Notes: a model not told the origin generated them from the sequence alone. 64,000 nt of DNA from Candidatus Daviesbacteria bacterium (GCA_016187025.1 JACPKM010000001.1:171188-235187), one strand, 5' to 3'. Shown: positions 31-40,573, counted from the stretch's first letter. Program-made: numbers and translations.

Positions 31-438
31 ATGAGAAGAATAGCTTCTTTTGTAACCACACTTTTATCTTACCTTTCCTTTCCTACAATCATCTTGGCGC
101 AACGGACCCCTACCCGTATAGAAATTAATCCTCCTCCGGTAGGATATTCCGACTTAGGAGTCTTTATAAGAAATGTATTATTTTTGATATTTGGCGTAGC
201 TGCATTAGCTGTTTTGGTAATGCTTATTTGGGGGGCATTTGAGTGGATAACATCAGGCGGAGACAAAGATGCAGTTGGTAAGGCAAGGGGTAAAATCCTC
301 AATGCCTTAATTGGACTGGCAGTGCTGGCGGTTGCCTTTGCTATTGCTTCTTTGGCAGCTCAATTTACAGGCATAAATCTGTTTGAAATTATTATCCCAA
401 CCCCTCAGAATCCTGCACCAATTGCGCCCCGGCCATAG
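31..438 (+). CDS. VirB2/TrbC-like T4SS pilin candidate (signal peptide plus two hydrophobic helices)
   Basis: N-terminal signal-like segment. Two long hydrophobic helices separated by a short charged loop (WGAFEWITSGGDKDAVGKARGK). It is the first gene of the T4SS-like locus. Topology matches T4SS pilins; I have no motif-level proof. Confidence 0.35.
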   Translation: MRRIASFVTTLLSYLSFPTIILAQRTPTRIEINPPPVGYSDLGVFIRNVLFLIFGVAALAVLVMLIWGAFEWITSGGDKDAVGKARGKILNALIGLAVLAVAFAIASLAAQFTGINLFEIIIPTPQNPAPIAPRP

Positions 439-447
439 TATTGTTAT

Positions 448-741
448 ATGGAACCACCTGCTGGTTTAAACCAACTTGAGCTTATTTTTGGAAGAATTGT
501 CTCTTTTTCCGTTGCTTTAACATTTATTGCATTATTTGTCATGCTGGTGTGGGGAGGATTAAAATATATTACCTCAGGGGGTGAACAGAAAGCAGTGCAA
601 GCTGCCCACCAAACTATAACCTGGGCTCTTTTGGGTGTATTATTTGTAATAATAGCCTGGTTGGTTTTGCTTACAATTGCTTCCCTGACTGGGATTAGTG
701 CATTAAAAGTATTTGACCCTAAAGTGCTTTTAAACCCTTAA
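448..741 (+). CDS. Second VirB2/TrbC-like pilin paralog
   Basis: Tandem paralog of 31..438 with the same two-helix topology. It conserves the loop motif W-G-x-x-x-x-I-T-S-G-G-(D/E)-x-K-A-V. Confidence 0.35.
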   Translation: MEPPAGLNQLELIFGRIVSFSVALTFIALFVMLVWGGLKYITSGGEQKAVQAAHQTITWALLGVLFVIIAWLVLLTIASLTGISALKVFDPKVLLNP

Positions 742-782
742 GCCTGTTGCAAAAAGCAGTTGAATTGTTTTACCCTTAATAT

Positions 783-2498
783 ATGTCTGCCCTATTTCAA
801 AATAGTATTAAGGTTCTAATTAGTCTGATACTTATAGCATTATTCACGCCATCTGCTTTTGCCCAAACAAACTCAGTGGAGGCAACAACAAGCGCGGCTA
901 CCGCGCAAACCGCCTATATTCATCCTCTATCTCCGCAATATGCCAATCTAACAGTTATCAACTTAATTCATACCTTAAGCTGCTTTGCAGAAGGAGCTTC
1001 TATTATCGGTCAGCCATGTTTAGAAGTAATTCCCTCCTATAATCTATACGGGTTACAACCATCTTCCACATCCAGAGGAACCGTGGGTGCAATTGCCAGT
1101 TTTTTAACCGCCCTTTATTCAACTCCGCCTACACAGACAAGCGTATACTTGGCAGAGCTGGGAAAAGAGCTTTCTATAATCCCCGAGGCAAAAGCACAGG
1201 TATCCGGAAGCGGCGATGCAATACTCACTCCAGTTAAACAAATTTGGTCAGTTGCGAGAAATTTGGCCTATATAGTTATGATTTTTGTATTTATTGTAAT
1301 TGGCTTTATGATTATGTTCAGGCAAAAAATTAACCCACAAACTGTTATATCTGCTCAGGCAGCCTTACCCTCTTTAGTTGTTGGATTGATACTAATTACA
1401 TTTAGCTACTTCATATCTTCTCTTCTTCTTGATGCAACTTTTTTAACTACCCGTATCTCAGCAAACTTAGTTGAAGGGTCAATACTCAAACCAGGCTCAA
1501 GTGAAAATATGCTCAAAAATGGCAGTCTTTTTGAAATCTTTAATGAGTTTATGCAAATAAAATGGCCATCTGAGGTTATAGACACAACCATACAAACCCT
1601 GAGCTCTCTTCAAAGCGACAAGGGAGGGATAGGTGAGATAATCGAAAATGCTTCGGGTCTGGGAGGGTGTTTAGTAGGAATTCAACTTGCCCCCAAGTGG
1701 GATATGGATATAAAACCTTTTGGTATAGGATTCAAAATACCAATCGGAGATCTTTTAGCCAAAGGCGGAAGCTGTCTTGCAGGAGGTGGTTTAGCAAAAC
1801 TCCTTTATAATGTACCGGGGCTCACAGGTACTTTAACAGGGTTGATTTTGTATGTTGTTTTAATTATCGCTTTACTGATTGCTTTATTCAGGTTGCTTTT
1901 TGCCTTAATTACCTCTTATATAACAATCATGATCTTTACTATTTTGTCCCCTTTTTATTTTCTTTTTGCCAGTATTCCCGGAAGGCAGGGGGCCAGCAGC
2001 ACTTGGTTTAAGACCATGGTTGCCAATTTACTGGCTTTTCCTGCCGTATTGGCTGCTTTAATTTTTGCCTCTTATATTTTGGGTATTAACACAGGGGTAA
2101 TTCAAACAATAAATGGTCCGATAGATTTTTCCACCGGCACTGTACCTTTGCTGGGAGGTTTAAATACTTCCTTTTTGCGTATTGTGCTAGCATATGGAGT
2201 CTTATTACTTACTCCAGCTATCCCAGATCTGGTCAAAGAATCCCTGGGAGTAAAGGGGTTTGCAGGATTCCAAACAACTATAGCCGGGTTTACAGCTGGA
2301 TTTGGGGTTGCCAGAGGGGGAGTCAACAAGACAATAGCTCCAATCCAACAAGAGCGGCAGACCTTTAGGGAACAACTCTGGAGAGCAAGGTATGGAGCCA
2401 CAACAGAAGAGGCATTGAGAGGTAAGGCTCCTTGGTATATTACAATGGGCAATATCCCGGGGAGAGCAGCTGAGAAGAAGGAATCATCTAAGCCATAA
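783..2498 (+). CDS. VirB6/TrbL-like polytopic membrane protein
   Basis: Signal peptide, then a ~170-aa extracytoplasmic region and 5-6 TM helices (LILYVVLIIALLIALFRLLFALITSYITIMIFTILSPFYFLF). Position and architecture resemble VirB6/TcpH/ConG family channel proteins. Confidence 0.45.
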   Translation: MSALFQNSIKVLISLILIALFTPSAFAQTNSVEATTSAATAQTAYIHPLSPQYANLTVINLIHTLSCFAEGASIIGQPCLEVIPSYNLYGLQPSSTSRGTVGAIASFLTALYSTPPTQTSVYLAELGKELSIIPEAKAQVSGSGDAILTPVKQIWSVARNLAYIVMIFVFIVIGFMIMFRQKINPQTVISAQAALPSLVVGLILITFSYFISSLLLDATFLTTRISANLVEGSILKPGSSENMLKNGSLFEIFNEFMQIKWPSEVIDTTIQTLSSLQSDKGGIGEIIENASGLGGCLVGIQLAPKWDMDIKPFGIGFKIPIGDLLAKGGSCLAGGGLAKLLYNVPGLTGTLTGLILYVVLIIALLIALFRLLFALITSYITIMIFTILSPFYFLFASIPGRQGASSTWFKTMVANLLAFPAVLAALIFASYILGINTGVIQTINGPIDFSTGTVPLLGGLNTSFLRIVLAYGVLLLTPAIPDLVKESLGVKGFAGFQTTIAGFTAGFGVARGGVNKTIAPIQQERQTFREQLWRARYGATTEEALRGKAPWYITMGNIPGRAAEKKESSKP

Positions 2499-2510
2499 AT
2501 AAATCAGGAG

Positions 2511-5150
2511 TTATTTTGCAAAAATACCCTTAAAAATATTTTTAAGGATATCCCATAAGCCTTCGTGGGGTTTTAACTTATTCAAGAAAATTTTGAACTC
2601 AGCCCACCAAATTGGTACCCCTATAATATTCCTTTCTAACTCGTTATACTTACCCTCCGACATCCCATTTTTGCGGAGTTTGTTAAGCATTTTTTTGATA
2701 TCCTGGTCATCAGGCGGATAGTCAAAACCTATCCCCTCTTTATCTTTATGATAATCATAAACTCTTATTTTCATTACTGCTTCTGCTAAATTATCCATAA
2801 AATTTTTCATCTCCCCTTCACCCCAGTTTGGCTCAGCCATAAACTGCCTTGCTTTTTCTCCGGTTTCACTAAAATTTTTACCGATATTTTCTGCATCCTC
2901 ATATGTGCTTGCACTATTTAGCCATCTGGGCCCTGTTTTAGTAAAAAGCGGTAACAGCTCATCCGCCCCTGCCCATTTTTTGGACATGGCCTTAATCTTG
3001 ACAAAACTACTTGACCAATTTCTGACTGTTTCAGATGCAGAAACATAACCCAAGCCCGTGGTGATGGCTAAAGTCTTAAAATATGTCAGCGGTCTCATCC
3101 TGTGCGCATATTTACCTGGATTGGCCTCACCTGTTTTAGCTAAATCCATTGGCTTATTATGCACTTTGCCCAGCTCTCTTGCCCTCCTGCCGCTGATTGA
3201 AGCCTCGGGACTTAAATAAGGAAATAGCTGGATATAAACATGGCTAAGCTCATTACCCCAGGTTTCTGATACACGATAAGCCTGATTGCTTTGTACATCT
3301 TCTAATACTCTTTTAACCATCTTTCCATATTCACCATATTTATCTGGGTCACCAGCCATCTCATTAACCATCTTTGCCGCAATCCTTAAGTTAATCCTTA
3401 CCTTTACTCCTGTACCCAACTCACCATCAGGATAATCTTTAAATCCCTTGCGATATTTAGGCCTGGTAACCGGATCGTCCCACTCCAAAATAGGATTAAG
3501 CACTACTGGTCCCCCCCTGACATTTCTGGCGCGAAAGGCCGGATCATCAGCCATTCCGGCTAAATTATTATTGAAGTTTTCAACCTCCTGATACCAATCC
3601 ACACCTCTCTCTTCCTCCCTCGTTGGTTTATAATCCTGCTTCTTTCCAGTTATTTCTATAGCAGGAGGGGGTTTCTGCGTGTATCTTTCAGGAAGCGGTG
3701 CCTTTTTCCATACATCAGGGTCATCAACCCACCTAATTCCATCATATTCCACAGAAACACCAAAGGCATGATGAAACGATTCTGCTAAGTGAAACGCCCT
3801 GGCAATATCATCAACCAGTTTGGCAAAGCGTTCTTGTTGCTCAGGAGAAAATGGCAGTGCGGCTCCCGCAGAATCTTTTAACCTGCCCCCGTATTTTTCG
3901 ATTACTTCCTTAACTATATCCTCCCCTGTTTTTTGTCTTTCGTATTTGTCATTTTGTTCCAGATGATTAATAGCTATTTTCAATAATTCATCATAATCCT
4001 TCTTTCTAAATTCGCTATCTGATTTAAAATTAGCCAGACCTAAACCATCCTCAACTTTCCGGGCTTCATCAATCAGTTTAAATTTATGCCTGATGACCCA
4101 GCCTCTTTCTGCCTTATCATCCCCGCTTTTTAAATCTTTATCTACATCAAGATCCTCTTTTAAAAGGGGCGAGTAAAATTCTGCGTCAGATGGATATTTT
4201 CTGTCTTTAGGCTTTCTATAATAAGCTCCGTCTTCCCGGTCTTCAGACCCCAGATCGGCTTGTTCTAATATACCGGCAGCTTTTTCAACCCCTGCTAGTT
4301 CCAGTATTGACAACAAGTGTCTTTGATAAAAATTGGTGATATTTTTTGTATATTCGGCTCCGCTTATAAACTTGGCAATGAAATTGATAATATGCAGATT
4401 CAACCTACCTTCTATCACGGTAGTCATTTCAGCGCGGAAGTGCTCATTTTCAGCAAAAAGTGAATTCATTATTCCATATAACTCTTTGACAGCATCGGCG
4501 CCCTGAGGAGAAGCAGTATCCCTTTCCATTACCCGGACCACTTGCTCAACATAAATACGCACCCTCGTATAATCAGGATCAAGATCCTTCTCGTCTGCTG
4601 CTTTTAAATCATCTACCTTGCTGTATGTACCTAAGTGGCTTCTTCTTTCTAAAACCTGGGCTATCTCTTCGGGGGATAAACCCAAAAGTTGCAGCCTTAA
4701 CTGCTGAACCGCAGAATCTCTCTCTATAGCTTCCGGGTCTATACCTCTGGCAGCATAAGCGTCATAAATAGCTTGCAAACTCTTCGCTGCCCCCTCTCTG
4801 GTAAGACGCTGCTTCTCTGTAAGCCCCATGACCCGCCGGTACTTCTCCCACCATTCTGTTTCTTGTTCAGGTTTAGCCCGGTCTAACGCTGCCATTTCTT
4901 CTCTTTCTCTTTTAAGCTCCTCATATTTCCTTCTTCTTTCCTCATCATCACCTGCCCCCCCGCCTGCTTTGGGATAAAATTTACCATCGGGGGTTCTATA
5001 CCCGGGTATGCCATTTACCGTCGCTTCTTCAAATTCAATATCTTCTTTAACAGGTTTTTGGCGGCTAAAGACTTCTGAGGACATTAAAGGTTCTGCCTGT
5101 TTAGGTTCAGGCTGAGGAGGCGGGCCTCCTCTTTCTGCTGCTTCTGCCAT
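2511..5150 (-). CDS. Large (879 aa) hydrophilic, highly charged hypothetical protein with no TM or recognisable domain
   Basis: Long uninterrupted ORF. GC is higher and Arg/Glu/Asp/Pro content greater than in flanking genes. It is the last gene of a minus-strand trio embedded in the T4SS-like locus. Confidence 0.5.
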   Translation of the reverse strand: MAEAAERGGPPPQPEPKQAEPLMSSEVFSRQKPVKEDIEFEEATVNGIPGYRTPDGKFYPKAGGGAGDDEERRRKYEELKREREEMAALDRAKPEQETEWWEKYRRVMGLTEKQRLTREGAAKSLQAIYDAYAARGIDPEAIERDSAVQQLRLQLLGLSPEEIAQVLERRSHLGTYSKVDDLKAADEKDLDPDYTRVRIYVEQVVRVMERDTASPQGADAVKELYGIMNSLFAENEHFRAEMTTVIEGRLNLHIINFIAKFISGAEYTKNITNFYQRHLLSILELAGVEKAAGILEQADLGSEDREDGAYYRKPKDRKYPSDAEFYSPLLKEDLDVDKDLKSGDDKAERGWVIRHKFKLIDEARKVEDGLGLANFKSDSEFRKKDYDELLKIAINHLEQNDKYERQKTGEDIVKEVIEKYGGRLKDSAGAALPFSPEQQERFAKLVDDIARAFHLAESFHHAFGVSVEYDGIRWVDDPDVWKKAPLPERYTQKPPPAIEITGKKQDYKPTREEERGVDWYQEVENFNNNLAGMADDPAFRARNVRGGPVVLNPILEWDDPVTRPKYRKGFKDYPDGELGTGVKVRINLRIAAKMVNEMAGDPDKYGEYGKMVKRVLEDVQSNQAYRVSETWGNELSHVYIQLFPYLSPEASISGRRARELGKVHNKPMDLAKTGEANPGKYAHRMRPLTYFKTLAITTGLGYVSASETVRNWSSSFVKIKAMSKKWAGADELLPLFTKTGPRWLNSASTYEDAENIGKNFSETGEKARQFMAEPNWGEGEMKNFMDNLAEAVMKIRVYDYHKDKEGIGFDYPPDDQDIKKMLNKLRKNGMSEGKYNELERNIIGVPIWWAEFKIFLNKLKPHEGLWDILKNIFKGIFAK

Positions 5151-5194
5151 ATGAGTTATATTTTACTCTTTTGAAGAGTTACTAAGCAAATTTT

Positions 5195-6424
5195 TTAGGC
5201 AGGTTGCGCTTCCCCGCATGCCTTACAAAAGTTACACAAAACATAAGTTAGCTGTCCGCAACCCACACACCTACCTGTTTCCCATCCTTCTGAATTTCCT
5301 GTCATCCCCATTCTTAATCCTCCAATGGTGGTTACTGAGGTAATTCCCACACCTTTGCCAACTCCAAAACAACCCCTAAATGTTTGCATATATCCTAAAG
5401 CTTTATCCCTGTCCAGGTTTGTTAAACGCCCATCTGCTGATCCAAAGCTTTCCCCTTTTGAATAAAGAATTATTTTTATCAAAGCTTCCTTCATCTGTTT
5501 TTCCAGCCATTTTTGGCCAACAATAGTTTGCAAAGCATCGGGGAATTTGGCAAAGAAATTAGTTAAATCACTTATATATTGATGAAGAAGAGCATTTTGC
5601 TCTTCTTGATCTTCCTTTTCCAAAGCTGCACAAACTTGAGCGTTTGTGCTGTTTTCCCCTTCAAACGGATCTTTTTTCATAGCAACAATTTCATCAACAA
5701 GCTCCCCAAACCCATAAGATTGGTCTTCAGTTGCTTCCAAATACAGACCGTTTCTAACTAAGTTGCTGGTAACAGTCTTTTTATCAACGCCTAAAAACGG
5801 AATTGGCTCGTACGGCTTATATTTATTTCTTAGTTTATAGAAAAGTTTCTGGCACTCAATAACTGATAAATTAGTCCTGACAACCACAGATTTTAAACCT
5901 GTGGCATCTTTTTTGAAAAAGTAAAAGTAAGAATCCGGGTAGTCGATCTCTTTGTCTTGCGGATCTTTGATGTTTGAACACCCCTCTGGACTCCACAGCA
6001 TTGAAACAGAGCCAACAGGCGCTTTGTCCAAAAACCTCTCATTTTCCTCCCACACATCACAGACTGCCCCTTCGCGCTCATTAGGATCAATTTGTTCCAA
6101 AACCCTTCTGCCTGATTTATCAACTATATGCCCCTTTTCATTGATTCTGTAATTAATTGGTATCACTGCCTCACATCTGACATACTCCTTGATCCAAGAC
6201 TCAATATTTTCCCTATGCCCAATTACGGCATTTTCTTGGCCAACTATCTCAAGTTGTTTTGCCAGTGCGCCAACTTCATGTGCGGCATTAAAACCGACAA
6301 TAGGAATATTTAACACATTTAAGGAGAGCTCTTGATATGTCCTTAAAGGGGCTCTAGGTAGCCTATTCCGACCAATATCAAGGGGGGTGATAGCTTTTCC
6401 TGCTAATGCTTCTTTTGTTGACAT
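5195..6424 (-). CDS. Hypothetical protein with C-terminal CxxC...CxxC zinc ribbon
   Basis: 409-aa ORF ending in GRCVGCGQLTYVLCNFCKACG. It sits upstream of, and on the same strand as, the 879-aa ORF with a 44-nt gap. No known catalytic motifs recognised. Confidence 0.5.
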   Translation of the reverse strand: MSTKEALAGKAITPLDIGRNRLPRAPLRTYQELSLNVLNIPIVGFNAAHEVGALAKQLEIVGQENAVIGHRENIESWIKEYVRCEAVIPINYRINEKGHIVDKSGRRVLEQIDPNEREGAVCDVWEENERFLDKAPVGSVSMLWSPEGCSNIKDPQDKEIDYPDSYFYFFKKDATGLKSVVVRTNLSVIECQKLFYKLRNKYKPYEPIPFLGVDKKTVTSNLVRNGLYLEATEDQSYGFGELVDEIVAMKKDPFEGENSTNAQVCAALEKEDQEEQNALLHQYISDLTNFFAKFPDALQTIVGQKWLEKQMKEALIKIILYSKGESFGSADGRLTNLDRDKALGYMQTFRGCFGVGKGVGITSVTTIGGLRMGMTGNSEGWETGRCVGCGQLTYVLCNFCKACGEAQPA

Positions 6425-6509
6425 ATATCCTCTTTGCCCGAAGAGCTTTATCCAGAATCCAGGCAGTCCGGCTTTCGGAGCTTTAATTTATAACTTAAAC
6501 TTTCATTTG

Positions 6510-7355
6510 TCAATTGCGGTATGTAAAAGTATTTCGAATTGTTTCTGTAGGATGTTCATTCAGATTGGGCATTACATAACCAAAACCTGGAGAAGTTACT
6601 ATATAATGATATGGGGAGGTTGTATCTCCCAAGGCTACACGAACCCTATGCGCCGTCACTGGTAAAATATGTTCATTTTGGTAGCCTTCATGTGAGTAAG
6701 TATCACCCCATACTTTAGCCAATAAATCTTTTTTACTTACCGGCTCTCCTAAATTAGTTGCTAAAACAACTAATAATCTATATTCTGTAGGTGTCAAACG
6801 AACATGGCTTCCTCTTACATGAACACTCTGCTCTCTCAAGCTAATTGCCAACCCATCATTGTGTATAAACCTTGGTAACTGAGTGGTATCAGCACCTTTT
6901 AAATCAGGTAAGTGATCAAGCCAGCGAAACGCCCGGGTTAAGTTTATTAATAAATCCCCCCTATCCCTATAAGCTACCTCGTGATAATAAGGGTAATCTG
7001 CTCTGGTAAATGGTAAATCAGTATCACTACCCGCAAGCCTTGAGGCGATAACAGGACAACCCCTATCAAGCATCATCCCCATACTCACCCAAACATTACT
7101 ATCGGCAAACGAAATATCTCCTAAGGCAATATCCGCACCTTTGATGGCTTCCCTGTCAACCCTTCTACTGTCCCAATCGGTAACAGCTTGAGGATTTATT
7201 ATTTCAATATTTTCTCTTGAACCGGAAGCAGTTAATAAGGTTCTGCCAATCCTTTTGATTGCGGCATCATCCGTATGAGGAAGAAATAGATACGCAAATC
7301 TCTCCATAGCTTTAGTCAGGTGAGTAAATTTAACCAAAGCTGTAGTTTTTTTCAA
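6510..7355 (-). CDS. Atypical OmpR/PhoB-family winged-helix transcriptional regulator (no receiver domain; N-terminal glycosyltransferase-like fragment)
   Basis: C-terminus LTPTEYRLLVVLATNLGEPVSKKDLLAKVWG...VTAHRVRVALGD...IVTSPGFGYVM matches the trans_reg_C wHTH consensus. The N-terminal ~180 aa lacks the receiver D-D-K motifs. It contains GCPVIASRLAGSDTDLP, which resembles the GT1/GT4 C-terminal sugar-donor region. Confidence 0.6.
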   Translation of the reverse strand: MKKTTALVKFTHLTKAMERFAYLFLPHTDDAAIKRIGRTLLTASGSRENIEIINPQAVTDWDSRRVDREAIKGADIALGDISFADSNVWVSMGMMLDRGCPVIASRLAGSDTDLPFTRADYPYYHEVAYRDRGDLLINLTRAFRWLDHLPDLKGADTTQLPRFIHNDGLAISLREQSVHVRGSHVRLTPTEYRLLVVLATNLGEPVSKKDLLAKVWGDTYSHEGYQNEHILPVTAHRVRVALGDTTSPYHYIVTSPGFGYVMPNLNEHPTETIRNTFTYRN

Positions 7356-7494
7356 GAAGGAGTTTAAGGCGAAATGTATATACTAAACTATCTAATTTGT
7401 TACTAAAATGGTTTAATTTGCCCTTAAATGACCTACTTTGTATATCTAGACACTAAAATTTTCACGTTATAGGATCTAAAGGATAAACCTGCCG

Positions 7495-8553
7495 ATGGAA
7501 CCGCATCCAATACCACAAAATATTACCTCCTTTCAATTTAAGTTGATTGGGGATATGACTTTAAAGCAATTTATCTACCTTGCTACTGGGGTGGGAATAG
7601 CTTATTTAACATTTATTTTTTTAGGAGCAAGTATACCCATAATTGCCTGGCCGGTTATTATTTCCAGTTCTCTACTTGGAGTTGCATTTGCTTTTTTACC
7701 TGTTGGTTATAGGTCTTTGGACCACTGGATGATTGCTTTTATGAAAGCAGTTTATTCTCCAACTAAAAGAGGTTGGAAGAAAAGCGGAAAAGATTATAAA
7801 AACGAGCCTCTTTTTAATAGCAGACTGTCTATGTTTTTGCAGGTCACCTCTACTGCTGCTGTCAGTCAGACAACCACTCAGGTACCGCTTGCTCAACCAA
7901 GTATTAACCAGGAAGAAAAACCTGCAAAACCACAACAAGATGTTTTACCTTCTTCAGAAGAGTTACAAAAAACAGTTGAACTGGCCAAACAAGCACAGGA
8001 TCTGCAAAATCAGATTGTAGAAAATGAAAGGAAACTTACCCAAATTAAAGTAGCAGCCAGCAAACCTAGCCCAATTCCGGTTGACTATTCACAAGAAATC
8101 AAAACCATCCTCGAAAACCTTAATAAACTGTTAGAAAAAGCATCGGCAATAAAGAACCAGTTATCCCAGTTGGAACATCAAGAACAGCACAATATGAAAA
8201 ATATTCTGGTTGGGACAACTCCAGTAAGGATTGTCGCTCCATCAAAACCAAAACAAACTCCACTCACTCTGACAAGTTCAGCAAATGTTATTAATGGAAT
8301 TGTTAAAGATGCGGAAAACAACTACCTAGAGGGAGTGGTGGTGGTTGTCTACGATAAAGAGGGCTTGCCGGTAAGAGCCTTAAAAACAAATAAACTGGGG
8401 CAGTTTTCCAGCGCTACTCCCCTACCAAATGGAACTTATACAGTTGAGCTGGAAAAAGAAAACCTTTTCTTTGACGCCTTACAAATGGAGCTTGCTGGAG
8501 AAATACTTCCACCGCTTATGATAGCAGCAAAAAGAGGTGTAATTAACAGTTAA
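7495..8553 (+). CDS. PrgI/VirB3-like 2-TM protein extended by coiled-coil and C-terminal carboxypeptidase-regulatory-like beta-sandwich
   Basis: N-terminus FKLIGDMTLKQFIYLATGVGIAYL plus a second TM resembles the PrgI/TcpD/Orf17 (VirB3-like) family, which precedes VirB4 in Gram-positive T4SS. The middle is a Q/E/K-rich coiled coil. The C-terminus VINGIVKDAENNYLEGVVVVVYDKEGLPV...NGTYTVELEKENLFF is CarboxypepD_reg-like. Confidence 0.45.
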   Translation: MEPHPIPQNITSFQFKLIGDMTLKQFIYLATGVGIAYLTFIFLGASIPIIAWPVIISSSLLGVAFAFLPVGYRSLDHWMIAFMKAVYSPTKRGWKKSGKDYKNEPLFNSRLSMFLQVTSTAAVSQTTTQVPLAQPSINQEEKPAKPQQDVLPSSEELQKTVELAKQAQDLQNQIVENERKLTQIKVAASKPSPIPVDYSQEIKTILENLNKLLEKASAIKNQLSQLEHQEQHNMKNILVGTTPVRIVAPSKPKQTPLTLTSSANVINGIVKDAENNYLEGVVVVVYDKEGLPVRALKTNKLGQFSSATPLPNGTYTVELEKENLFFDALQMELAGEILPPLMIAAKRGVINS

Positions 8554-8554
8554 T

Positions 8555-9304
8555 ATGAATACAACACAGCAACACTTACCAATAAGAGATATTAAAGATG
8601 ATTTAGTGCTGCTAAAAGACGGAGGCTCGGCGCTGGTACTGCAAGTAGGCGCAGTTAATTTTGGATTACTCTCAGAAAGAGAGCAGATTGCAATTATTTC
8701 CTCTTTTGCCCAGATGCTAAACTCGCTGTCTTTTAGTATACAAATTCTTATTCATTCTGAAAGATTAAATCTTTCCTCTTATACCCAAAAATTAGAACAG
8801 GCACAGAAAATGCAAACTAATCCGTTACTGTCTAGTATGATAGGCCGGTATAAAACTTTTATACAAAAAATAGTAAAAGAAAATGATGTCCTGGATAAAA
8901 AATTTTATTTGGTAATACCAGCCTACAGCATAGAGTTGGGGATAGGGTTGTCAACTGAGGATATGTTTACAAAAGCCAAAACACTGCTTCTCCCCAGAAA
9001 AGATCAGATTATAAGACAACTTAGCAGGATTAGTCTGAGGTCAAACCAACTAAGCACCAGGGAGCTGGTTTTACTGTTTTATAACATCTATAACTATTCA
9101 CCAAATCAGCTAACTCTAACAAAACCAACCCAATCCCAAATTCAGGTAGACCAGGTACAGCTCAAAAACCCCCAACCTGCTCAGCCACCTGTACCTTCAC
9201 AAGTTGAACAAACGGTGTCAGTTATTACTCAACCAATCAGAGATACCTACACCAGCCCCAGCAAACGGGTGCCCTTTGTAGTTGAAGAGCTGACAGACAA
9301 TTGA
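8555..9304 (+). CDS. VirB4 N-terminal domain encoded as a separate ORF (split VirB4, N-part)
   Basis: IKDDLVLLKDGGSALVLQVGAVNFGLLSEREQIAIISSFAQMLNSLSFSIQILIHS resembles the extreme N-terminus of Gram-positive VirB4 proteins (PrgJ/TcpF/ConE-like). The ORF ends in TGA 4 nt before the ATPase ORF. The two lengths together give about 848 aa, typical for VirB4. Confidence 0.4.
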   Translation: MNTTQQHLPIRDIKDDLVLLKDGGSALVLQVGAVNFGLLSEREQIAIISSFAQMLNSLSFSIQILIHSERLNLSSYTQKLEQAQKMQTNPLLSSMIGRYKTFIQKIVKENDVLDKKFYLVIPAYSIELGIGLSTEDMFTKAKTLLLPRKDQIIRQLSRISLRSNQLSTRELVLLFYNIYNYSPNQLTLTKPTQSQIQVDQVQLKNPQPAQPPVPSQVEQTVSVITQPIRDTYTSPSKRVPFVVEELTDN

Positions 9305-9308
9305 GAGG

Positions 9309-11108
9309 TTGATTATGAATTTTGCAAATATATTTAAAAAAGGAGCTGCACAAAAAAACGCTGCCGCACCAAATTTTGATTTAAAGGATGTGCTAGCTCC
9401 TGCAGAAATTGAGGTAGATTTTAACGACATAAGAATCAATAACCGCTTTTATAGAACATATTTTGCATCAAATTATCCCCGTTTTGTTGAACCGAACTGG
9501 CTAGAACCCCTGATCTCTTTTGAGCATTCCCTTTTTATATCTATGTTTATCTACCCTTCTGAGTCAAAAGGTATACTTGATGATTTAAAAAGAAAGATCG
9601 GAGAAATGGAGGCTACCATTCAAACCGATCTGGAAAGAGGGCATGTAATTGATCCTGCTGTTGAGGTGGCGCTTGGGGATGCAAGAATTCTCCAGGAGCA
9701 ACTTGTCAAAGGTGTGGAGAGATTTTTCCAATTTGGACTTTACGTTACTGTACCCGCCAGTAGTAAAGATGAGTTAAGAAACACTTCAAAGCTTATTGAA
9801 TCAACCCTTGGTTCTATTTCAATTTCCTCAAACCCCACAACCTTACAAATGGAAGATGGTTTTAAAACTACCCTACCTATTGGGCAAGACTTACTAAATC
9901 TTTCCCATAATATGGACACTACCTCTGTTGCGACCACTTTTCCTTTTGCATCGTCTGAACTAACAGCAAATGAAGGCATTATGTATGGAATAAACCAGCA
10001 CAACGAATCTTTAATTCTTTTTGACAGGTTTTCTCTGGAAAATGCGAATTCAGTAGTGTTCGCCAAGTCTGGCGCGGGCAAGAGCTTTTTTGTAAAACTA
10101 GAGGCCTTACGTTCCTTAATGTTTGGCACAGAAATCTTAATTATCGATCCTGAGCAAGAATACTATCCTTTATGCCAAGCAGTTGGTGGAGAATATTTAA
10201 ACTTTTCAGCCAATTCGCCAATCAAAATCAACCCTTTTGACCTTGCTGGTGAGGTATCGGGAGAAAATAGACAAAGAAGTATATTTTCTGGCGAAAATGA
10301 GCTGGGAAGAAAAATTCTTTCCCTAACAGCCTTTTTAAAACTTGTTATGGGTAGTCTTGATCCTATTGAATCAGCAATTTTGGACAGAGCCCTAAAGCAA
10401 ACTTATGCTTTAAAAGGCATCACAGATGACCCTAAAACCCAAAACAGACAGCCGCCTTTAATGGAGGATTTATATAAAGTTTTAACCGGTATGGAAGAAA
10501 GACCTGCCTTATCGCTGGCTGCAAGACTGGAAAGATTTATTAAGGGATCTTTGGCAGGAATCTTTTCTTCTCACTCTAATTTACAAATTACTAACTCCTT
10601 TACGGTTTTTTCAGTCAGAGATTTAGCAGATCAGCTAAGGCCTTTAGCAATGCATTTGATACTGGAATTCATCTGGACAAAAATTAGGACTAGGTTAAAA
10701 AAAAGGATTCTAATTGTAGATGAGGCCTGGTATATGATGCAGTTTGAAGATTCAGCAAACTTCCTTGTAGACCTTGCAAAGAGAGCGCGCAAGTATTATC
10801 TAGGTGTTACCACCATCACCCAAGATGTTGAAGATTTCTTGGCCGGTGAAAGGGGTAAAGAGATTATCTCAAACTCATCTATACAAGTACTGCTAAAACA
10901 AGCCCCTGCTTCAATGGATCTGCTCTCAAGAGTCTTTCACCTATCAGAAGGCGAACAAAGACTACTATTGTCTGCTGGTATTGGCCAGGGATTGTTTTTT
11001 GCCGGCAATACCCATGTTGCCATGCAGGTGGTTGCGTCACCTGAAGAACACAGACTGGTTACTTCTAATCCTGCTGAGCTGATAATTACAGGGCCACCGC
11101 CTATATAA
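9309..11108 (+). CDS. virB4: VirB4/TraC-like T4SS ATPase (C-terminal part including ATPase core)
   Basis: CagE/TrbE/VirB-type region (FYRTYFASNYPRFVEPNWLEPLI), Walker A FAKSGAGKSFFV, Walker B ILIVDEAWYM. A GAGG ribosome-binding site lies upstream of the ATG. The Walker A sits unusually early, consistent with the N-terminal domain being in the preceding ORF. Confidence 0.85.
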   Translation: MIMNFANIFKKGAAQKNAAAPNFDLKDVLAPAEIEVDFNDIRINNRFYRTYFASNYPRFVEPNWLEPLISFEHSLFISMFIYPSESKGILDDLKRKIGEMEATIQTDLERGHVIDPAVEVALGDARILQEQLVKGVERFFQFGLYVTVPASSKDELRNTSKLIESTLGSISISSNPTTLQMEDGFKTTLPIGQDLLNLSHNMDTTSVATTFPFASSELTANEGIMYGINQHNESLILFDRFSLENANSVVFAKSGAGKSFFVKLEALRSLMFGTEILIIDPEQEYYPLCQAVGGEYLNFSANSPIKINPFDLAGEVSGENRQRSIFSGENELGRKILSLTAFLKLVMGSLDPIESAILDRALKQTYALKGITDDPKTQNRQPPLMEDLYKVLTGMEERPALSLAARLERFIKGSLAGIFSSHSNLQITNSFTVFSVRDLADQLRPLAMHLILEFIWTKIRTRLKKRILIVDEAWYMMQFEDSANFLVDLAKRARKYYLGVTTITQDVEDFLAGERGKEIISNSSIQVLLKQAPASMDLLSRVFHLSEGEQRLLLSAGIGQGLFFAGNTHVAMQVVASPEEHRLVTSNPAELIITGPPPI

Positions 11109-11116
11109 ATTGTAAA

Positions 11117-12952
11117 ATGGACAAAGCGTTTTTAATTGCAGCATTACAGGCAAAGATCAAAAGGCCCTTTAGACAAAGTTACGGAGGAAAACCATATAAT
11201 GAAATCTTTGAGCAGCTCAGAGCTGATAAGACATTTGCCGGTGTTAGCAGAAACAATCCCGATGATATCAGCCTAGCAGAAAATATTCTCGGCATATTAC
11301 TCACTTCTGAGACAAAAAGGTCTGCTCAGCCCCAAGACGAACCTGCGGAGGAAAAACAGAAAAAAGAGAAAAAAGCAGAATGGAGACCTAAGCTAGACTC
11401 ACCCAGTCAAACCAAAAACACCACCCCAGAACCTGAAGCATTTAGTATACCCTTGCCTATTTCAAGCTTTACAAAAACAGTTTTAAGTAAAACTTTAATA
11501 TTTATCAGAAAATCAGTGGGTAAATACATCAGTCTTTCCGGATTTGTTTCCTCAATAGAAAAACTTGTTTATCCAAACACCTCCGGTTTATCAGAACATA
11601 GAGACTATAGTTTGGGACCTGGGTCAAATATACCTAACAGAAATGGTTTTTCGCTTTTTTCAACAGGTGGTTTTAATTTTTTCAAAGGACGGGCATTGAT
11701 AATTTTTTTTATCATTCTTTTTATCATTTTACTAATCGGCATGCTCTCCGGACCAATTACTACACCCAGTAACACTCCGTCTGATATAACCTCAGGAAAT
11801 ATAAATACCTGTCAATTTACCAGAAGTGATCAAAATCCAAAGGAAGCATCTTTTAAAAGTCCCCTGCTTTTGGGCTATATCGAGGAAGCATCTAGGCTTA
11901 CCGGGATACCCCTGGTTGTTTTAGCAGGTTTTATACGAGTAGAATCACCTTCCTCAGTTAATTTTACTGATGAGCAAACAAGAAGCTACAAATGCGCTAT
12001 CAGTCCCACAGGAGCCTTAGGAATAATGCAAATACAACCTGCAGGCACAAGAGGCCATGATGCACCGGCAGTAACAAATGGTGCGGATTTTTTAGGATTG
12101 GATTATCAAACCTTAACGCAAGAAGATTATTGTGACGTAAGGAAAAATATTATTTTAGGAGCTGGGTTTATTTTAAAAAAGATGAGTTATTTAAAATTTG
12201 GAGACGGTACCAAATGGGATCCAAGCTGGACCAGAAACCAAAATGCCATCTATGCACTGGCAGAAAGCTATTATGGGTGTTTAAACTATGGGGGGTCTAA
12301 TCCTTTAAAATGCGATGGGCCATATAACTACGGACAAGATGTCTGGTCCAGTGTTTTAAGTTGTCAGCAAGGAGCTCCTCCTTCCTCAGCAGGTTTTACT
12401 AACCCTGAAGGGTTTGTCTATTATTGCCAGGGTGATCCAAGATGGGATAATAAATCTGGTTGCGGAATAGGTCAGATTGGATGCGGACCAACCTCGCTTG
12501 CAATGGTATTTAGTAGCCTAGGAAAGGCTGTAACCCCAGACCAGATGTATCAAACATTCTCGTCACAAAACAGGATTAACTGCGCTGTAGGTAGCTATAT
12601 GGAAACTATCCTCCAAGACAGGGCCTGGATGAGGGATCAAGGGTTTGAAGTAGGCCCAAGGGTGGTTGCAAATGGAAATCTTGATTTACCCAGAGCCAAG
12701 CAATACTTGGCAGAAGGCTATTTAATTGTTGGTTCTTCCCAAACTTTTCCCAGTTATATATCCAACAGGACTTTCCCTCATATATTTGTGGTTAATGGGG
12801 TAAATATAGAAGATAAAACCTTTAGTATCCGAGACCCGGCAAACTGCGACTACTCAACAGGAGTAGAGGTTGTTAGCAGGCAAATTAAACCGGCAAATGG
12901 TATAGGAGGGTTAAATTGGGCCTATGCTTACCCAATTAAAAGGATAAGATAA
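11117..12952 (+). CDS. VirB1-like bifunctional cell-wall hydrolase: lytic transglycosylase (SLT) plus C39-like cysteine peptidase, membrane anchored
   Basis: Cytoplasmic N-terminus, then one TM (ALIIFFIILFIILLIGML). SLT motifs E-S...AISPTGALGIMQIQP and YNYG. C-terminal CQGDPRWDN...GCGPTSLAMVFSSLG matches Peptidase_C39_2. The architecture parallels TcpG/CwlT/PrgK. Confidence 0.7.
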   Translation: MDKAFLIAALQAKIKRPFRQSYGGKPYNEIFEQLRADKTFAGVSRNNPDDISLAENILGILLTSETKRSAQPQDEPAEEKQKKEKKAEWRPKLDSPSQTKNTTPEPEAFSIPLPISSFTKTVLSKTLIFIRKSVGKYISLSGFVSSIEKLVYPNTSGLSEHRDYSLGPGSNIPNRNGFSLFSTGGFNFFKGRALIIFFIILFIILLIGMLSGPITTPSNTPSDITSGNINTCQFTRSDQNPKEASFKSPLLLGYIEEASRLTGIPLVVLAGFIRVESPSSVNFTDEQTRSYKCAISPTGALGIMQIQPAGTRGHDAPAVTNGADFLGLDYQTLTQEDYCDVRKNIILGAGFILKKMSYLKFGDGTKWDPSWTRNQNAIYALAESYYGCLNYGGSNPLKCDGPYNYGQDVWSSVLSCQQGAPPSSAGFTNPEGFVYYCQGDPRWDNKSGCGIGQIGCGPTSLAMVFSSLGKAVTPDQMYQTFSSQNRINCAVGSYMETILQDRAWMRDQGFEVGPRVVANGNLDLPRAKQYLAEGYLIVGSSQTFPSYISNRTFPHIFVVNGVNIEDKTFSIRDPANCDYSTGVEVVSRQIKPANGIGGLNWAYAYPIKRIR

Positions 12953-12956
12953 AAAT

Positions 12957-13412
12957 ATGAGCTTTATTAAAAACAATCTGGGTTTAATTTTTTTTGCTAT
13001 AGCAATACTTACTGTCATCATTGTTGCTTCTGTATATTTGATACTAAAACCCTCCTCGCAACCCACACCCTCTCCTGTTGTAATATTTTCCCCTTCTCCC
13101 AAGCCTAACCTGGAGCAAAAAGTATTCGCCGGAGAACCTGATCCAAACAGAAGCTATCAGGTAATCACCGAGCAAAATAAACAGCAAGGAGAACAGGATT
13201 ATTTGGTGGGGGTTCTTGCTGATAAACTGCCCTTTCAAGGAGTCAACTTCAGCCTGCTTTACAATATTTCTAACAATCAGTTTGTGGTAGTCTTTAACAG
13301 CAGCAATAAAAGCGTGGCTGAGCAAGAGTTTAACCGGTTTTTAGAACAAAACGGCATTAAAGACCAGGGATGGCTGTATAATTTATATATAACAGAACAA
13401 CCGTATGAGTAA
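12957..13412 (+). CDS. Small membrane-anchored extracytoplasmic protein (possible VirB8-like/T4SS accessory)
   Basis: N-terminal TM (LGLIFFAIAILTVIIVASVYLIL) followed by a ~120-aa soluble domain. It is co-directional and tightly spaced with the T4SS genes. Confidence 0.35.
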   Translation: MSFIKNNLGLIFFAIAILTVIIVASVYLILKPSSQPTPSPVVIFSPSPKPNLEQKVFAGEPDPNRSYQVITEQNKQQGEQDYLVGVLADKLPFQGVNFSLLYNISNNQFVVVFNSSNKSVAEQEFNRFLEQNGIKDQGWLYNLYITEQPYE

Positions 13413-13860
13413 GGGCAAAATAATTTTTCTGAGCACTATTATTTTAATTCTTCTTTTTTTAGCTGGATTTTTCCTTTCTAATAATAAAGATGGCGATGGC
13501 GATGGTAACATAGACACATCATCACAGGCAGTAGTTGACGATTCAAAACCAAGAGTAGTCTCAGTTCAACCTACCCAACAAGAGGCTCCTTTTATCACCC
13601 AAAACCAGGTGATTACGGTTACTTTTAATATGCCGGTCGAAAATACAGGTGAGTTTAAACATAAAATAGAGCCAGAGCTAAAATACCGGCTGGAGCCTTC
13701 TGCAGACAGAAAAGTAATAAAAATTACACCTGAGGAGCCTTATTTACTAGGAACCGAATATACCTTATTTATCAAGCCGGAAACCAAGTTTGATGGCAAG
13801 AAAACATTAAACGAAGAAAAAATATACCATTTTAAAACTATCCAATACCGCGGGGTCTAA
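13405..13860 (+). CDS. Small membrane-anchored protein with Ig-like (SbsA/Big-like) domain
   Basis: N-terminal TM (IIFLSTIILILLFLAGFFL), then SVQPTQ...VITVTFNMPVEN...KVIKITPEEPYLLGTEYTLFIKP, typical of bacterial Ig-like domains. It overlaps the previous ORF by 8 nt. Confidence 0.35.
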   Translation: MSKGKIIFLSTIILILLFLAGFFLSNNKDGDGDGNIDTSSQAVVDDSKPRVVSVQPTQQEAPFITQNQVITVTFNMPVENTGEFKHKIEPELKYRLEPSADRKVIKITPEEPYLLGTEYTLFIKPETKFDGKKTLNEEKIYHFKTIQYRGV

Positions 13861-13877: not shown

Positions 13878-14978
13878 TCAACTTAATCTTACAGGCATAA
13901 TTATATATTGCAATCCCTGCTCTCCAATGGGCTTTATCAAAGCCGCCGACAGCTGTCCTGATAGCTCAATCATTACTTGACTTGTAGGCGAGGCAGCAAC
14001 TGCATCTTGTAAAAACTTGGCATTAAAAGCAACTTGTAAATCTTCTCCCTCGATTTGCCCTTCTACCTCATTTTGCTGGCTACCTAACTCTTTTGCGGAA
14101 GACTCTAAAACAAGCTTACCTTCTGACACCTTAAACACAATAATATTTGCCTCACTTCTGGCAAACACTGAAGCCAGCTTTACCGCTTTTAAAATCTGGT
14201 CTTTATCAACTACTGCCCGGGTTATCAGCTGTGTGGGAATAATTTTTTCCCAAGAAGGAAATTGTCCTTCTATTAAACGGGAGGAAACTATTGTCTGGCC
14301 AATAGAAAATATAATCTGGTTTTGATTTACAGAGGTTGCAATACTTATTTGCTCTGCAGCTTCTTCTGAAATCACCCTTAAAACCTCTTCAAAGGTTTTT
14401 TTGGGAATTAAACTTTTAAACTCTTTGGTATTTTCTGGCAGACTCACTTGTCTGTGCGCCAACCTGAACCCATCGGTTGCCACAAGGTCAAGCTTATCTT
14501 TAGATGCATGAGTTAAGATTCCCGTTAAAACAGGCCGTCCTTCATCAACCGCTGCTGAAAAAAGAATTTGCGAGCAAGACACTAAGACGTCTTTTTTAAA
14601 CACTATCCCTTCACTGCCTGGCAGGGGAATCGCAGGAAACTCAGAAGCTGAAATGCCATTTACCGTAGCTTTAAACTTACCGCTAGTTATTTCTAAAACA
14701 TCACCCCTTGATTCAAGCTCAACTTTAGAAGAACCTATTCCCGAGATAAGCTCAACGATTGTTTTTGCTGGAACAGTTATTTCTCCTTCTTCTAAAATAT
14801 CTGCAGGGATTTGTTTTATTACTCCAATTTCTAGATTTGTCCCTGCAATTTTAATTTTCTTATCTTGAGCTGATAAGAAAATATTATCTAAAACAGGCAG
14901 CGTTGATTTGACTCCTACAGATCTTGAGACTGCTGATAATGGAGGCAGTAAGTCTTGTTGTAATACTGATAGCTTCAC
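13878..14978 (-). CDS. dnaN: DNA polymerase III beta sliding clamp
   Basis: MKLSVLQQDLL...LPVLDNIFLSAQDKKIKIAGTNLEIGV is the beta-clamp N-terminus. Size and domain organisation are typical. It lies downstream of dnaA. Confidence 0.9.
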   Translation of the reverse strand: MKLSVLQQDLLPPLSAVSRSVGVKSTLPVLDNIFLSAQDKKIKIAGTNLEIGVIKQIPADILEEGEITVPAKTIVELISGIGSSKVELESRGDVLEITSGKFKATVNGISASEFPAIPLPGSEGIVFKKDVLVSCSQILFSAAVDEGRPVLTGILTHASKDKLDLVATDGFRLAHRQVSLPENTKEFKSLIPKKTFEEVLRVISEEAAEQISIATSVNQNQIIFSIGQTIVSSRLIEGQFPSWEKIIPTQLITRAVVDKDQILKAVKLASVFARSEANIIVFKVSEGKLVLESSAKELGSQQNEVEGQIEGEDLQVAFNAKFLQDAVAASPTSQVMIELSGQLSAALIKPIGEQGLQYIIMPVRLS

Positions 14979-14983
14979 TAAAA

Positions 14984-15433
14984 TTACTCCTTCCGGGCAG
15001 ATACAAAGCGGTTGATCTCCTCTTCGGTCACCTTAATCAACCGGAAATGAATCTTTCCTTGTGTAATGAGGTTTTTAATATGTTTTTCCTCATCAGTCAA
15101 GATGTAATTAATCCCAGACTTCACTTCAATAAAGTCGATACGCTCATTATTTTTAATACCAATAAAATCAATTGGCCACCCTAAGGGCACTATCCTGTCA
15201 TAATCATACCTTAGCTCAGCATATGTCAAAAGCTCTGCCATTTTTCCTTTTTGTGGGTTTATAGAGCCTTGAATGGTTTGTAAAACCCTAGCAGGCAAGT
15301 CCTGAACTCCCTTGTATAAATCTATTAAATCTGTAGGGATATCTTGGGCTTTTTTTGAATGAAGTCTTCCTAATAAATAAGCTACTGCTAAAAAAAGTAT
15401 AAATAATCCTGCCAGAACCAAATTCTTTTCCAT
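14984..15433 (-). CDS. Membrane-anchored PD-(D/E)xK (Hjc/restriction-endonuclease-like) fold protein
   Basis: N-terminal TM. Motif IDFIGIKNNERIDFIEVKSG (D...E-V-K) resembles the Hjc/VRR-NUC catalytic core. It is inserted between dnaA and dnaN. Confidence 0.35.
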   Translation of the reverse strand: MEKNLVLAGLFILFLAVAYLLGRLHSKKAQDIPTDLIDLYKGVQDLPARVLQTIQGSINPQKGKMAELLTYAELRYDYDRIVPLGWPIDFIGIKNNERIDFIEVKSGINYILTDEEKHIKNLITQGKIHFRLIKVTEEEINRFVSARKE

Positions 15434-15616
15434 AAGTTTTCAACTTATAAATTAGATTATACCTTACTTTTTAATACAGTAGTGTTATTAATATAGTCTG
15501 TGGATATGTTAATAACAACTTTTTTCAGGTTCACCTTTCACCTTTTTTTCGTGTTAACGGCTTGTTGAGAAATTGTGGATAACTGGTGGAAAAAGTGGAT
15601 AACTGGTGGAAAAGTC
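15434..15616. promoter_or_regulatory. DnaA-box cluster / candidate oriC element downstream of dnaA
   Basis: TGTGGATAT at 15499-15507, TGTGGATAA at 15574-15582, and GTGGATAA again at 15595-15602. These sit within a direct repeat, gtggataactggtggaaaa, present twice (15576-15594 and 15596-15614). An AT-rich stretch at 15440-15540 is a possible unwinding element. Confidence 0.6.
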
Positions 15617-16930: not shown

Positions 16931-17086
16931 ATAGTAAATTTATTGTGGATAAGTCCACAAGAGTTATCCACAAAATAGTCTACACCTCCTTTTTTAGCAA
17001 GGTAGAGAAACTATTAAAAACTAGATCAATTTCTTAAACCAGGACCTTGCTATACAAAGATAGAATTTTCTGTTAATATTTATCTT
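16931..17086. promoter_or_regulatory. dnaA upstream region with convergent DnaA boxes / candidate oriC part; divergent rpmH promoter
   Basis: TGTGGATAA at 16944-16952 and TTATCCACA at 16964-16972 in inverted orientation. TTATCCATA overlaps the dnaA start. An AT-rich tract runs 17041-17086. Confidence 0.6.
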
Positions 17087-17224
17087 ATGCCAAAAAGGAC
17101 ATATCAACCCAAAGCAATTAAAAGAGTCAGAAAACATGGTTTTAGAGCCCGGATGCAAACCAAGGATGGTGCTAAAGTACTAAAACGCAGAAGAGCTGTG
17201 GGACGAAAGAGTTTAACTGTTTAA
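17087..17224 (+). CDS. rpmH: 50S ribosomal protein L34 (absent from ORF track, under 60 aa)
   Basis: Translates to [45 protein letters not shown]. Its stop overlaps the rnpA start (TAATG). Confidence 0.9.
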
Positions 17225-40135: not shown

Positions 40136-40573
40136 ATGAATACTCCAATATGTGGTTTGTGCGGGAAGAAAAGTAAACTTGTAAAAACCGACTGCTGTAA
40201 TAACTGGATCTGTAACGATGAAGGTAAATATGTGATTTTTTCGTATGCCAGAAATAGTTGCTCACGTAATCATCGGCGATTCACACTTTGTGGATATCAT
40301 AACACCGAGGATCACAAAAGCAACTGGAAAACATGTAAAAAGTGTGCTAATAGTTTTGATGCTGAAGATTATGCTTGGTACGGAACAAATGAATATAACT
40401 TCGAAAAGCTTCCTGACCCGCCTAAATTTGATCCGACCTATTGCTCTTTGTGCGGGGTTATAATCAACCGTGGAGAAGACGGATATACGCGACTACCCGA
40501 TGGGAAATTTCTGTGCGAATCGTGCGGATGGAAACATATGAATGAGCAAATAAAAGATGTTGAGAAGATATGA
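40136..40573 (+). CDS. Cys-rich multi-zinc-ribbon protein (hypothetical)
   Basis: Six CxxC-type pairs: C6/C9, C67/C70, C104/C107, C124/C127 and others. It overlaps the downstream RhuM gene by 4 nt. Confidence 0.45.
   Translation: MNTPICGLCGKKSKLVKTDCCNNWICNDEGKYVIFSYARNSCSRNHRRFTLCGYHNTEDHKSNWKTCKKCANSFDAEDYAWYGTNEYNFEKLPDPPKFDPTYCSLCGVIINRGEDGYTRLPDGKFLCESCGWKHMNEQIKDVEKI

Follow-up and report, generated by a model that had tools for sequence, protein, structure and literature searches.

Type IV secretion systems (T4SS) from the Candidate Phyla Radiation (CPR) count, in a 2025 review, as an accepted newcomer within the T4SS superfamily (PMC12857230). Across 3,035 CPR genomes, Quinonero-Coronel et al. 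(2025, Microb Genom; PMC12102498) found a monophyletic Patescibacteria VirB4 clade inside the mating-pair formation class MPF_FATA, with TrsD as the commonest virB4 neighbour, PrgI/VirB3 present, arrays of VirB2-like pilins abundant (especially in Microgenomatia), relaxases nearly absent and homologues of the type IV coupling protein (T4CP) distant from virB4; in Paceibacteria and Microgenomatia, dnaA, dnaN, rnpA and rpmH are enriched near virB4. In Southlakia epibionticum ML1 the corresponding locus, SEML1_0006-0019, has no recognizable relaxase or coupling proteins, lies next to dnaA...recF and is indispensable for growth as an epibiont (Wang et al., 2023, Cell; PMC10633639). Few machines are known to be essential to epibiotic life in these ultra-small bacteria, and the CPR T4SS is one of them. 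Here we analyse a locus at positions 31-13860 of a 64,000-nucleotide (nt) stretch from Candidatus Daviesbacteria bacterium (GCA_016187025.1 JACPKM010000001.1:171188-235187; Microgenomatia, CPR), referred to below as the window. We find that this locus is very probably a chromosomal T4SS of the kind present beside the replication origin in almost every ultra-small member of the CPR/Patescibacteria, derived from monoderm MPF_FATA conjugation machinery and used for host contact or transfer. An initial annotation, made from the DNA alone, had likened it to the minimal T4SS-like systems of ultra-small episymbionts rather than to a conjugative element, and the gene content agrees with both of the studies above. 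The system, its missing conjugation genes, its origin-side position and the gene-dosage idea attached to that position were all published between 2023 and 2025, and the finding is real, and stands well above chance, but is not new. What the window offers is a clean Microgenomatia example that places VirB6, VirB3 and VirB1, components reported as scarce or unlinked in this class.

The window proteins were mapped onto each of 80 related genomic loci (L001-L080), and the left flank was read from a public contig (L081) that matches the window at 100% identity along 10,438 bp and reaches 7,747 bp upstream of it. The genes of the locus are as follows, with lengths in amino acids (aa) and with TM standing for transmembrane.

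31-438, plus strand: VirB2-like T4SS pilin, 135 aa; PF18895, E 1.5e-8; signal peptide and two TM helices
448-741, plus strand: VirB2-like T4SS pilin, 97 aa; PF18895, E 7.5e-7; 31% identity to the preceding pilin
783-2498, plus strand: VirB6-like polytopic membrane protein, 571 aa; about five TM segments in addition to a signal/TM segment; fold match
2511-5150, minus strand: large, fast-evolving protein without TM segments, 879 aa; no family; position kept, termini conserved
5195-6424, minus strand: zinc-ribbon protein without TM segments, 409 aa; no family; member of a 41-member family at the same position
6510-7355, minus strand: OmpR-type winged-helix DNA-binding protein, 281 aa; Trans_reg_C, E 1.7e-15
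7495-8553, plus strand: PrgI/VirB3-like protein, 352 aa; PF12666, E 7.3e-9; two TM helices, coiled coil, C-terminal beta-sandwich
8555-9304, plus strand: TrsD-like protein (the VirB4 N-terminal domain as a gene of its own), 249 aa; TrsD, E 9.3e-6
9309-11108, plus strand: VirB4 ATPase, 599 aa; conju_CD1110, 377 bits; TraG P-loop, E 1.5e-27
11117-12952, plus strand: membrane-anchored cell-wall hydrolase in the VirB1 position, 611 aa; Peptidase_C39_2, E 2.1e-10; SLT, E 0.0027
12957-13412, plus strand: small anchored protein, 151 aa; N-terminal TM helix, Pro-rich linker, domain of ~80 residues
13405-13860, plus strand: small anchored Ig-like (Big_5) protein, 151 aa; Big_5, E 1.2e-7; one N-terminal TM helix

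The VirB4 assignment is firm. The protein passes the NCBIfam equivalog model conju_CD1110 (cut-off 325 bits; profile positions 179-734 of 752), so that it stands as a VirB4, as first annotated, and not as an ATPase of the FtsK/HerA type. Its best NCBIfam models are of MPF_FATA type, its nearest solved structure is 4AG5 (E 4.6e-49), and both the Walker A (GAGKS) and Walker B (ILIVDEAW) motifs are intact. The gene directly upstream, at 8555-9304, was omitted from the gene list of the initial annotation. Its product matches the N-terminal part of VirB4 models, namely positions 103-292 of the NCBIfam Mycoplasma model VirB4_plasma (E 3.2e-10), as well as TrsD, and its record carries PF26593 (TraC-like). 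Because the ATPase matches positions 285-891 of the same model, so that the two proteins tile adjoining positions, we take VirB4 to be split into two genes here, as it is in plasmid pGO1. The TrsD gene is found in 78 of the 80 related loci.

Upstream of TrsD lies the PrgI/VirB3 protein, which scores above the PF12666 cut-off and has the two TM helices and the unusual extensions that had been noticed at the outset: a coiled coil and a CarboxypepD_reg-like domain (E 2.1e-6; 28.4 bits, below the Pfam cut-off). Full-length homologues are present in 76-77 of the 80 loci and the order PrgI-TrsD-VirB4 in 77-78. In the Microgenomatia of the published survey, VirB6 is scarce, VirB3 is mostly not linked to virB4 and VirB1 is poorly linked (PMC12102498). 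By contrast, in the window and its relatives PrgI sits directly upstream of TrsD-VirB4 (77/80 loci), a VirB6 recognizable at the level of the fold follows the pilins and a modular peptidoglycan hydrolase always follows VirB4. These placements of VirB6, VirB3 and VirB1 are refinements of the survey and not signs of a different system.

Two tandem pilins had been annotated at the left end of the locus. Both match the T4SS_pilin family PF18895, but the array to which they belong has six genes and is cut by the window edge: in L081, four further PF18895 genes (5411-7727) directly precede window position 31, and the two pilins of the window are the fifth and the sixth, or last, of a tandem array that begins ~2.3 kb before the window. 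Pairwise identity among the six is 19-36%. The first of them, 453 aa long, has a signal/TM segment, an ectodomain of ~340 residues with Cys and a C-terminal pilin domain, and may be a tip or adhesin pilin. Farther upstream in L081 are genes for SpoIID, a bPH-like protein, DUF5657, an unknown 635-aa protein and SmpB.

The 571-aa protein that follows the pilins had been called a VirB6-like channel protein, a call that sequence families fail to support but fold comparison does support. The protein has no match in Pfam or NCBIfam, a 50-sequence profile of it finds none among the PDB sequences, and its 278 homologues are all without annotation. An AlphaFold2 (AF2) model built from 50 homologues (mean predicted local distance difference test score, pLDDT, 73.9) has as its top four Foldseek matches TrwI/VirB6 chains of the R388 T4SS, with probabilities up to 0.97, an E value of only 0.07 and a sequence identity to TrwI of ~5%. 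We accept the protein as VirB6-like, with moderate confidence in what is a model-based assignment, because the fold match coincides with a position right after the pilins, as in Southlakia. The pilin-pilin-VirB6-like module recurs 5-10 kb upstream in the related loci wherever the flank reaches.

The hydrolase that follows VirB4 has a cytoplasmic N-terminus, a single TM helix (184-218), an SLT-like domain and a papain-like C39_2 domain, an arrangement in keeping with the VirB1-like SLT and C39 hydrolase proposed earlier. The C39_2 domain is above its cut-off; the SLT domain is sub-threshold (17.7 bits against 21.3), with its 'VES' and 'GIMQ' motifs (E-S, G-x-M-Q) readable, and in same-position proteins of relatives the SLT match rises to E 1.2e-6. 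The gene after virB4 in the relatives always encodes a single-TM protein, of 416-1579 aa, in which we find M23 modules (in 9), SLT (7), C39_2 (6), amidases (Amidase_2/3; 4) and CHAP (1), and also DUF11 repeats. Position and TM anchor are thus kept while the catalytic modules are swapped, and this swapping may track different cell walls.

Two small proteins, each with one N-terminal TM helix as annotated, complete the operon; the suggestion that they substitute for VirB8 finds no support. A VirB8/TcpC protein would have a TM helix and an NTF2-like domain of ~130 residues, and family searches of the two proteins yield an Ig-like Big_5 domain for 13405-13860 and a domain of ~80 residues for 12957-13412. 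The latter protein has no family match in Pfam or NCBIfam, and its nine-member alignment (A5) shows only the ~80-residue domain. The Big_5 protein is the conserved last gene before dnaN, with homologues in 50-52 of the 80 loci. Single-linkage clustering had joined the two as apparent paralogues, a relation that a direct hidden Markov model test does not bear out.

Set beside the described systems, the locus is closest to the Patescibacteria clade, with which it shares VirB4 and an adjacent TrsD, PrgI/VirB3, a pilin array, neighbouring origin genes and no linked relaxase or T4CP (PMC12102498). Southlakia likewise has VirB4, a TrsD-like protein, PrgI, a VirB6-like protein after the pilins, six PF18895 pilins and a hydrolase after VirB4; its locus also adjoins the dnaA...recF side in convergent orientation, and its origin-side end has an exported PEGA/Ig-like protein where the window has Big_5. 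The Southlakia locus differs in possessing an NTF2-like (VirB8-like) protein and two polytopic proteins of ~1000 residues, none of which is seen in the window, and in a lysozyme-like hydrolase module in place of SLT and C39_2; conversely, the 879-aa and 409-aa pair on the opposite strand, both without TM segments, distinguishes the window from Southlakia. The monoderm MPF_FATA systems (Trs of pGO1/pSK41, Prg of pCF10 and the C. difficile conjugative transposon, CTn) share the VirB4 family, PrgI and the lack of an outer-membrane core; pGO1 also has the separate TrsD protein, and PrgK/TraG is, like the hydrolase of the window, a two-domain membrane-anchored wall enzyme with a glycosylase and a cysteine peptidase. 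Unlike these systems, the window locus has VirB2-like pilins, which monoderm systems lack, has no relaxase or coupling protein that we could find, and sits in the chromosome, at a fixed place by the origin, with vertical inheritance. With the MPF_T systems (R388 Trw and Agrobacterium VirB) it shares the two-helix VirB2-type pilins, the VirB6 fold (TrwI being the top match) and the VirB3/VirB4 module, whereas VirB5, VirB7-VirB11 and VirD4 are not recognized among the scanned locus proteins.

The origin-side end of the locus is followed by these features.

13878-14978, minus strand: dnaN (DNA polymerase III beta clamp); DNA_pol3_beta domain found three times, E 1e-31 to 4e-23
14984-15433, minus strand: TM-anchored Endonuc_Holl-like protein, 149 aa; Endonuc_Holl, E 5.1e-8
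15499-15602, no strand: DnaA-box cluster downstream of dnaA; one perfect and two one-mismatch boxes
15617-16930, minus strand: dnaA; Bac_DnaA, E 1.8e-66
16923-16972, no strand: DnaA-box cluster upstream of dnaA; two boxes perfect, one with a single mismatch
17087-17224, plus strand: rpmH (L34), then rnpA, yidC and jag, the usual origin-side set, read from the DNA

The locus had been said to abut the origin and to end 18 nt from dnaN; the gap between its last gene (ending at 13860) and dnaN measures 17 nt, and both DnaA boxes and G-C skew support the origin. Perfect TTATCCACA boxes occur only three times in the 64 kb, flanking dnaA, and together with the one-mismatch boxes they form two clusters that lie 1.6-3.1 kb from the end of the T4SS cluster. 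The cumulative G-C minimum falls at 16,501, inside dnaA, and rpmH-rnpA-yidC-jag diverge from dnaA. The cluster at 16923-16972, between dnaA and rpmH, is likely to be the oriC core. The Endonuc_Holl-like gene between dnaN and dnaA encodes the most conserved protein of the neighbourhood (median identity 77%, 49 loci) and is absent from loci outside Daviesbacteria; its domain resembles the archaeal Holliday junction resolvase.

Sixty-six of the related loci have enough flank to be informative about dnaN and dnaA, those of Daviesbacteria, Gottesmanbacteria and Shapirobacteria among them. All 66 have dnaN and dnaA on the minus strand 3-10 kb downstream, in the same orientation, and keep the order PrgI-TrsD-VirB4...dnaN-dnaA. 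Convergence of the T4SS core operon (7495-13860, plus strand) with dnaA-dnaN (minus strand) is seen not just in the window but also in Southlakia (SEML1_0003-0013) and in every one of the 66 informative loci; the operon would therefore be transcribed head-on to the fork leaving oriC. Gene dosage, put forward explicitly for the origin-side virB4 by Quinonero-Coronel et al. (2025; PMC12102498), is a conjectural rationale for this position.

The search for conjugation genes covered Pfam-scanned open reading frames (ORFs) from -7.7 kb to +64 kb, including the 20 largest other ORFs of the window. No scanned ORF matches a relaxase family and none is a VirD4/TcpA-type ATPase, VirB4 being the only T4SS-type P-loop protein; this agrees with the earlier description of the locus as lacking relaxase and coupling protein, and the 7.7 kb of L081 to the left of the window, where such genes might have made it an ordinary conjugative element, contain neither. 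A degenerate or integrated conjugative element (ICE), with relaxase, coupling protein and origin of transfer (oriT) outside the examined sequence, would account for the fact that the nearest families are conjugative (conju_CD1110, TrsD, PrgI and a Mycoplasma ICE pilin-like family). We regard an ICE as very improbable and already largely refuted. The same chromosomal position and orientation recur in all 66 informative loci, across several Microgenomatia candidate phyla, and the median identity of the related loci to the window is higher for VirB4 (71%) than for DnaA (53%), DnaN (56%) or YidC (60%). Because VirB4 is more conserved than these three proteins and its position is fixed, the locus is not a mobile element. 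Neither an integrase (among the scanned ORFs) nor a tRNA gene that could mark a boundary (in the window) was found, the G+C content of 0.39-0.42 over 1-14 kb compares with 0.34-0.41 in the remaining window, and relaxases occur in only 103 of 3,035 CPR genomes (PMC12102498). One database protein, from Candidatus Daviesbacteria, equals the window VirB4 at 100% identity, and the best 120 clusters listed all lie at 74-87%; where these clusters have names, the names are Daviesbacteria, Woesebacteria, Microgenomates or Patescibacteria. The median identities in the related loci point to purifying selection on VirB4. The locus is a core, vertically inherited and ancient piece of CPR genome architecture. 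A prophage was considered as well and is ruled out by synteny and conservation, in a window free of tRNA genes; Rfam families are also absent from the window.

The machinery derived from MPF_FATA would have lost, or never had, the relaxase and the linked coupling protein and would have gained the VirB2-like pilin array. By homology, PrgI/VirB3, the VirB6-like protein and the split VirB4 (TrsD and ATPase) would form a cytoplasmic-membrane translocon and its motor, the six pilins would be pulled from the membrane and polymerized into a pilus, and the anchored hydrolase with its SLT and C39-like domains would open peptidoglycan, either the cell's own or that of the host. The assembled machine would serve host-cell contact and the transfer of macromolecules to or from the host, instead of conjugation; it might export proteins, take in nucleic acid from the host or act in adhesion alone. 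An importer, pulling host DNA, RNA or other macromolecules inward in the manner of H. pylori ComB or archaeal Ced, seems to us rather unlikely as an explanation in its own right: it is the same machine working in the opposite direction, a variant of the host-contact T4SS and not a true alternative to it. It would fit the fact that ComB/Ced-type systems work without relaxase or coupling protein, neither of which is found nearby here, as well as the inability of CPR bacteria of this type to make nucleotides and a 2026 preprint that connects a monophyletic CPR VirB4, together with T4SS-like pili, to the use of host RNA as food. VirB4 does match the Ced DNA-import ATPase CedB, weakly and far below the cut-off (E 5.9e-14), but no DNA- or RNA-binding translocon component is recognized in the locus, and for no CPR T4SS is there direct evidence on the direction of transport. 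Less probable again is an organelle that is a pilus and nothing else, in which the VirB4 motor and the pilins would make a filament, adhesive or sensory, with which to attach to a host, and no substrate would be translocated. Six pilin paralogues, one of them with a large ectodomain, and the missing coupling protein would suit such a filament, and in the related loci the motor is conserved whereas the pilins, VirB6 and the hydrolase diverge quickly, the pattern expected of surface structures under host-driven selection. Against it, type IV pili already provide CPR bacteria with a means of adhesion (PMC10633639), and the conserved VirB6/VirB3 translocon and the conserved cytoplasmic pair in the locus hint at a transported cargo. 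Four points weigh against the T4SS for host contact and transfer that we prefer. The function is assigned by homology alone; a VirB8-like protein is not found among the locus proteins; VirD4-like matches lie far from virB4 in most CPR genomes (PMC12102498), and a distant T4CP is possible in a genome of ~0.5-1 Mb; and the head-on orientation, which is unusual for genes that are essential or strongly expressed, does not square easily with the plain argument that the operon is placed for high expression.

The genes had been described as co-directional, whereas three minus-strand genes (2511-5150, 5195-6424 and 6510-7355) span 2511-7355 and break up the plus-strand cluster with 4.8 kb on the other strand. 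The first two belong to an arrangement found in nearly every related locus, where a large minus-strand ORF and then an ORF of 290-580 aa lie between the VirB6-like gene and prgI. The large ORFs, 570-1760 aa long, lack a signal peptide and are usually predicted to have no TM segment, and they fall into at least six BLAST clusters. The 879-aa protein of the window has only 19 relatives among 1.84 billion representatives. It has a disordered N-terminus with an 'M..ERG' motif and ends in an extreme C-terminal amphipathic helix (GLWDILKNIFKGIFAK). In 16 of 18 of these relatives an N-terminal 'M..ERG' precedes a Pro/Glu/Gly-rich disordered stretch, and the same 16 share the extreme C-terminal amphipathic helix. 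A profile of this tail made from the representatives was compared with the tails of 1,205 proteins encoded in the 80 loci, and the 11 best matches were all large ORFs at the pair position, members of other BLAST clusters included; a second group of large ORFs (1200-1760 aa) shares another tail, 'EFVGEWPARLL'. The AF2 model of the 879-aa protein is helical (pLDDT 76; predicted template modelling score, pTM, 0.75), with the tail helix flexibly attached, and its fold has no relative in the PDB.

The smaller ORFs form one highly divergent single-linkage family of 41 members, the 409-aa protein included, whose alignment (A3) has a mean column identity of 15% and invariant residues S145, C352, C386 and C389; a C-terminal CxxC...CxxC zinc ribbon and a 'WSPPG'-type serine are invariant. 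A word-index homologue search with the 409-aa protein returned one relative, and a 42-member profile derived from the loci finds zinc ribbons only, in both the PDB and Pfam. In the relatives this gene is transcribed divergently from the PrgI operon. Both proteins evolve fast: in the nearest relative genome, identity is 59% for the 879-aa protein and 64% for the 409-aa protein, with 54% for the VirB6-like protein and 87% for VirB4.

We propose, tentatively and as something possible rather than probable, that the 879-aa and 409-aa pair is an undescribed, fast-evolving part of the Microgenomatia T4SS, in which the large protein would act as a translocated substrate bearing its signal at the C-terminus, or else as a peripheral-membrane adaptor in place of the missing coupling protein, and the zinc-ribbon protein would be its partner. 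Its tail could be a membrane-targeting helix of the kind known from the amphipathic helices of MinD and FtsA, or equally a C-terminal secretion signal. The pair may be the one new element of the locus and the sole lead worth following, and if it is cargo or a substitute for the coupling protein it would give a concrete handle on what the machine moves.

The third minus-strand gene, at 6510-7355, has no homologue in the 80 related loci and is specific to this lineage, inserted between the 409-aa gene and prgI. No receiver domain is detected in its winged-helix product, the DNA-binding part of which matches the phage family phrog_731 (E 2.2e-12). At the other end of the minus-strand block only 12 nt (2499-2510) separate the VirB6-like gene from the convergent 879-aa gene, leaving no space for terminators. 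Promoter and terminator scans of the window gave counts at chance level.

Elsewhere in the window, a RhuM-family protein (40570-41565, plus strand; E 2.5e-109) and an AAA_14 ATPase (29699-30883, minus strand) are encoded among housekeeping genes and are unrelated to the T4SS. A gene at 22097-24988 (plus strand) encodes a 963-aa protein in which an NAD-dependent epimerase/dehydratase domain is fused to DUF4012, and it lies in a cell-envelope cluster together with genes for a Wzy_C ligase and a polysaccharide-synthesis flippase-like protein.

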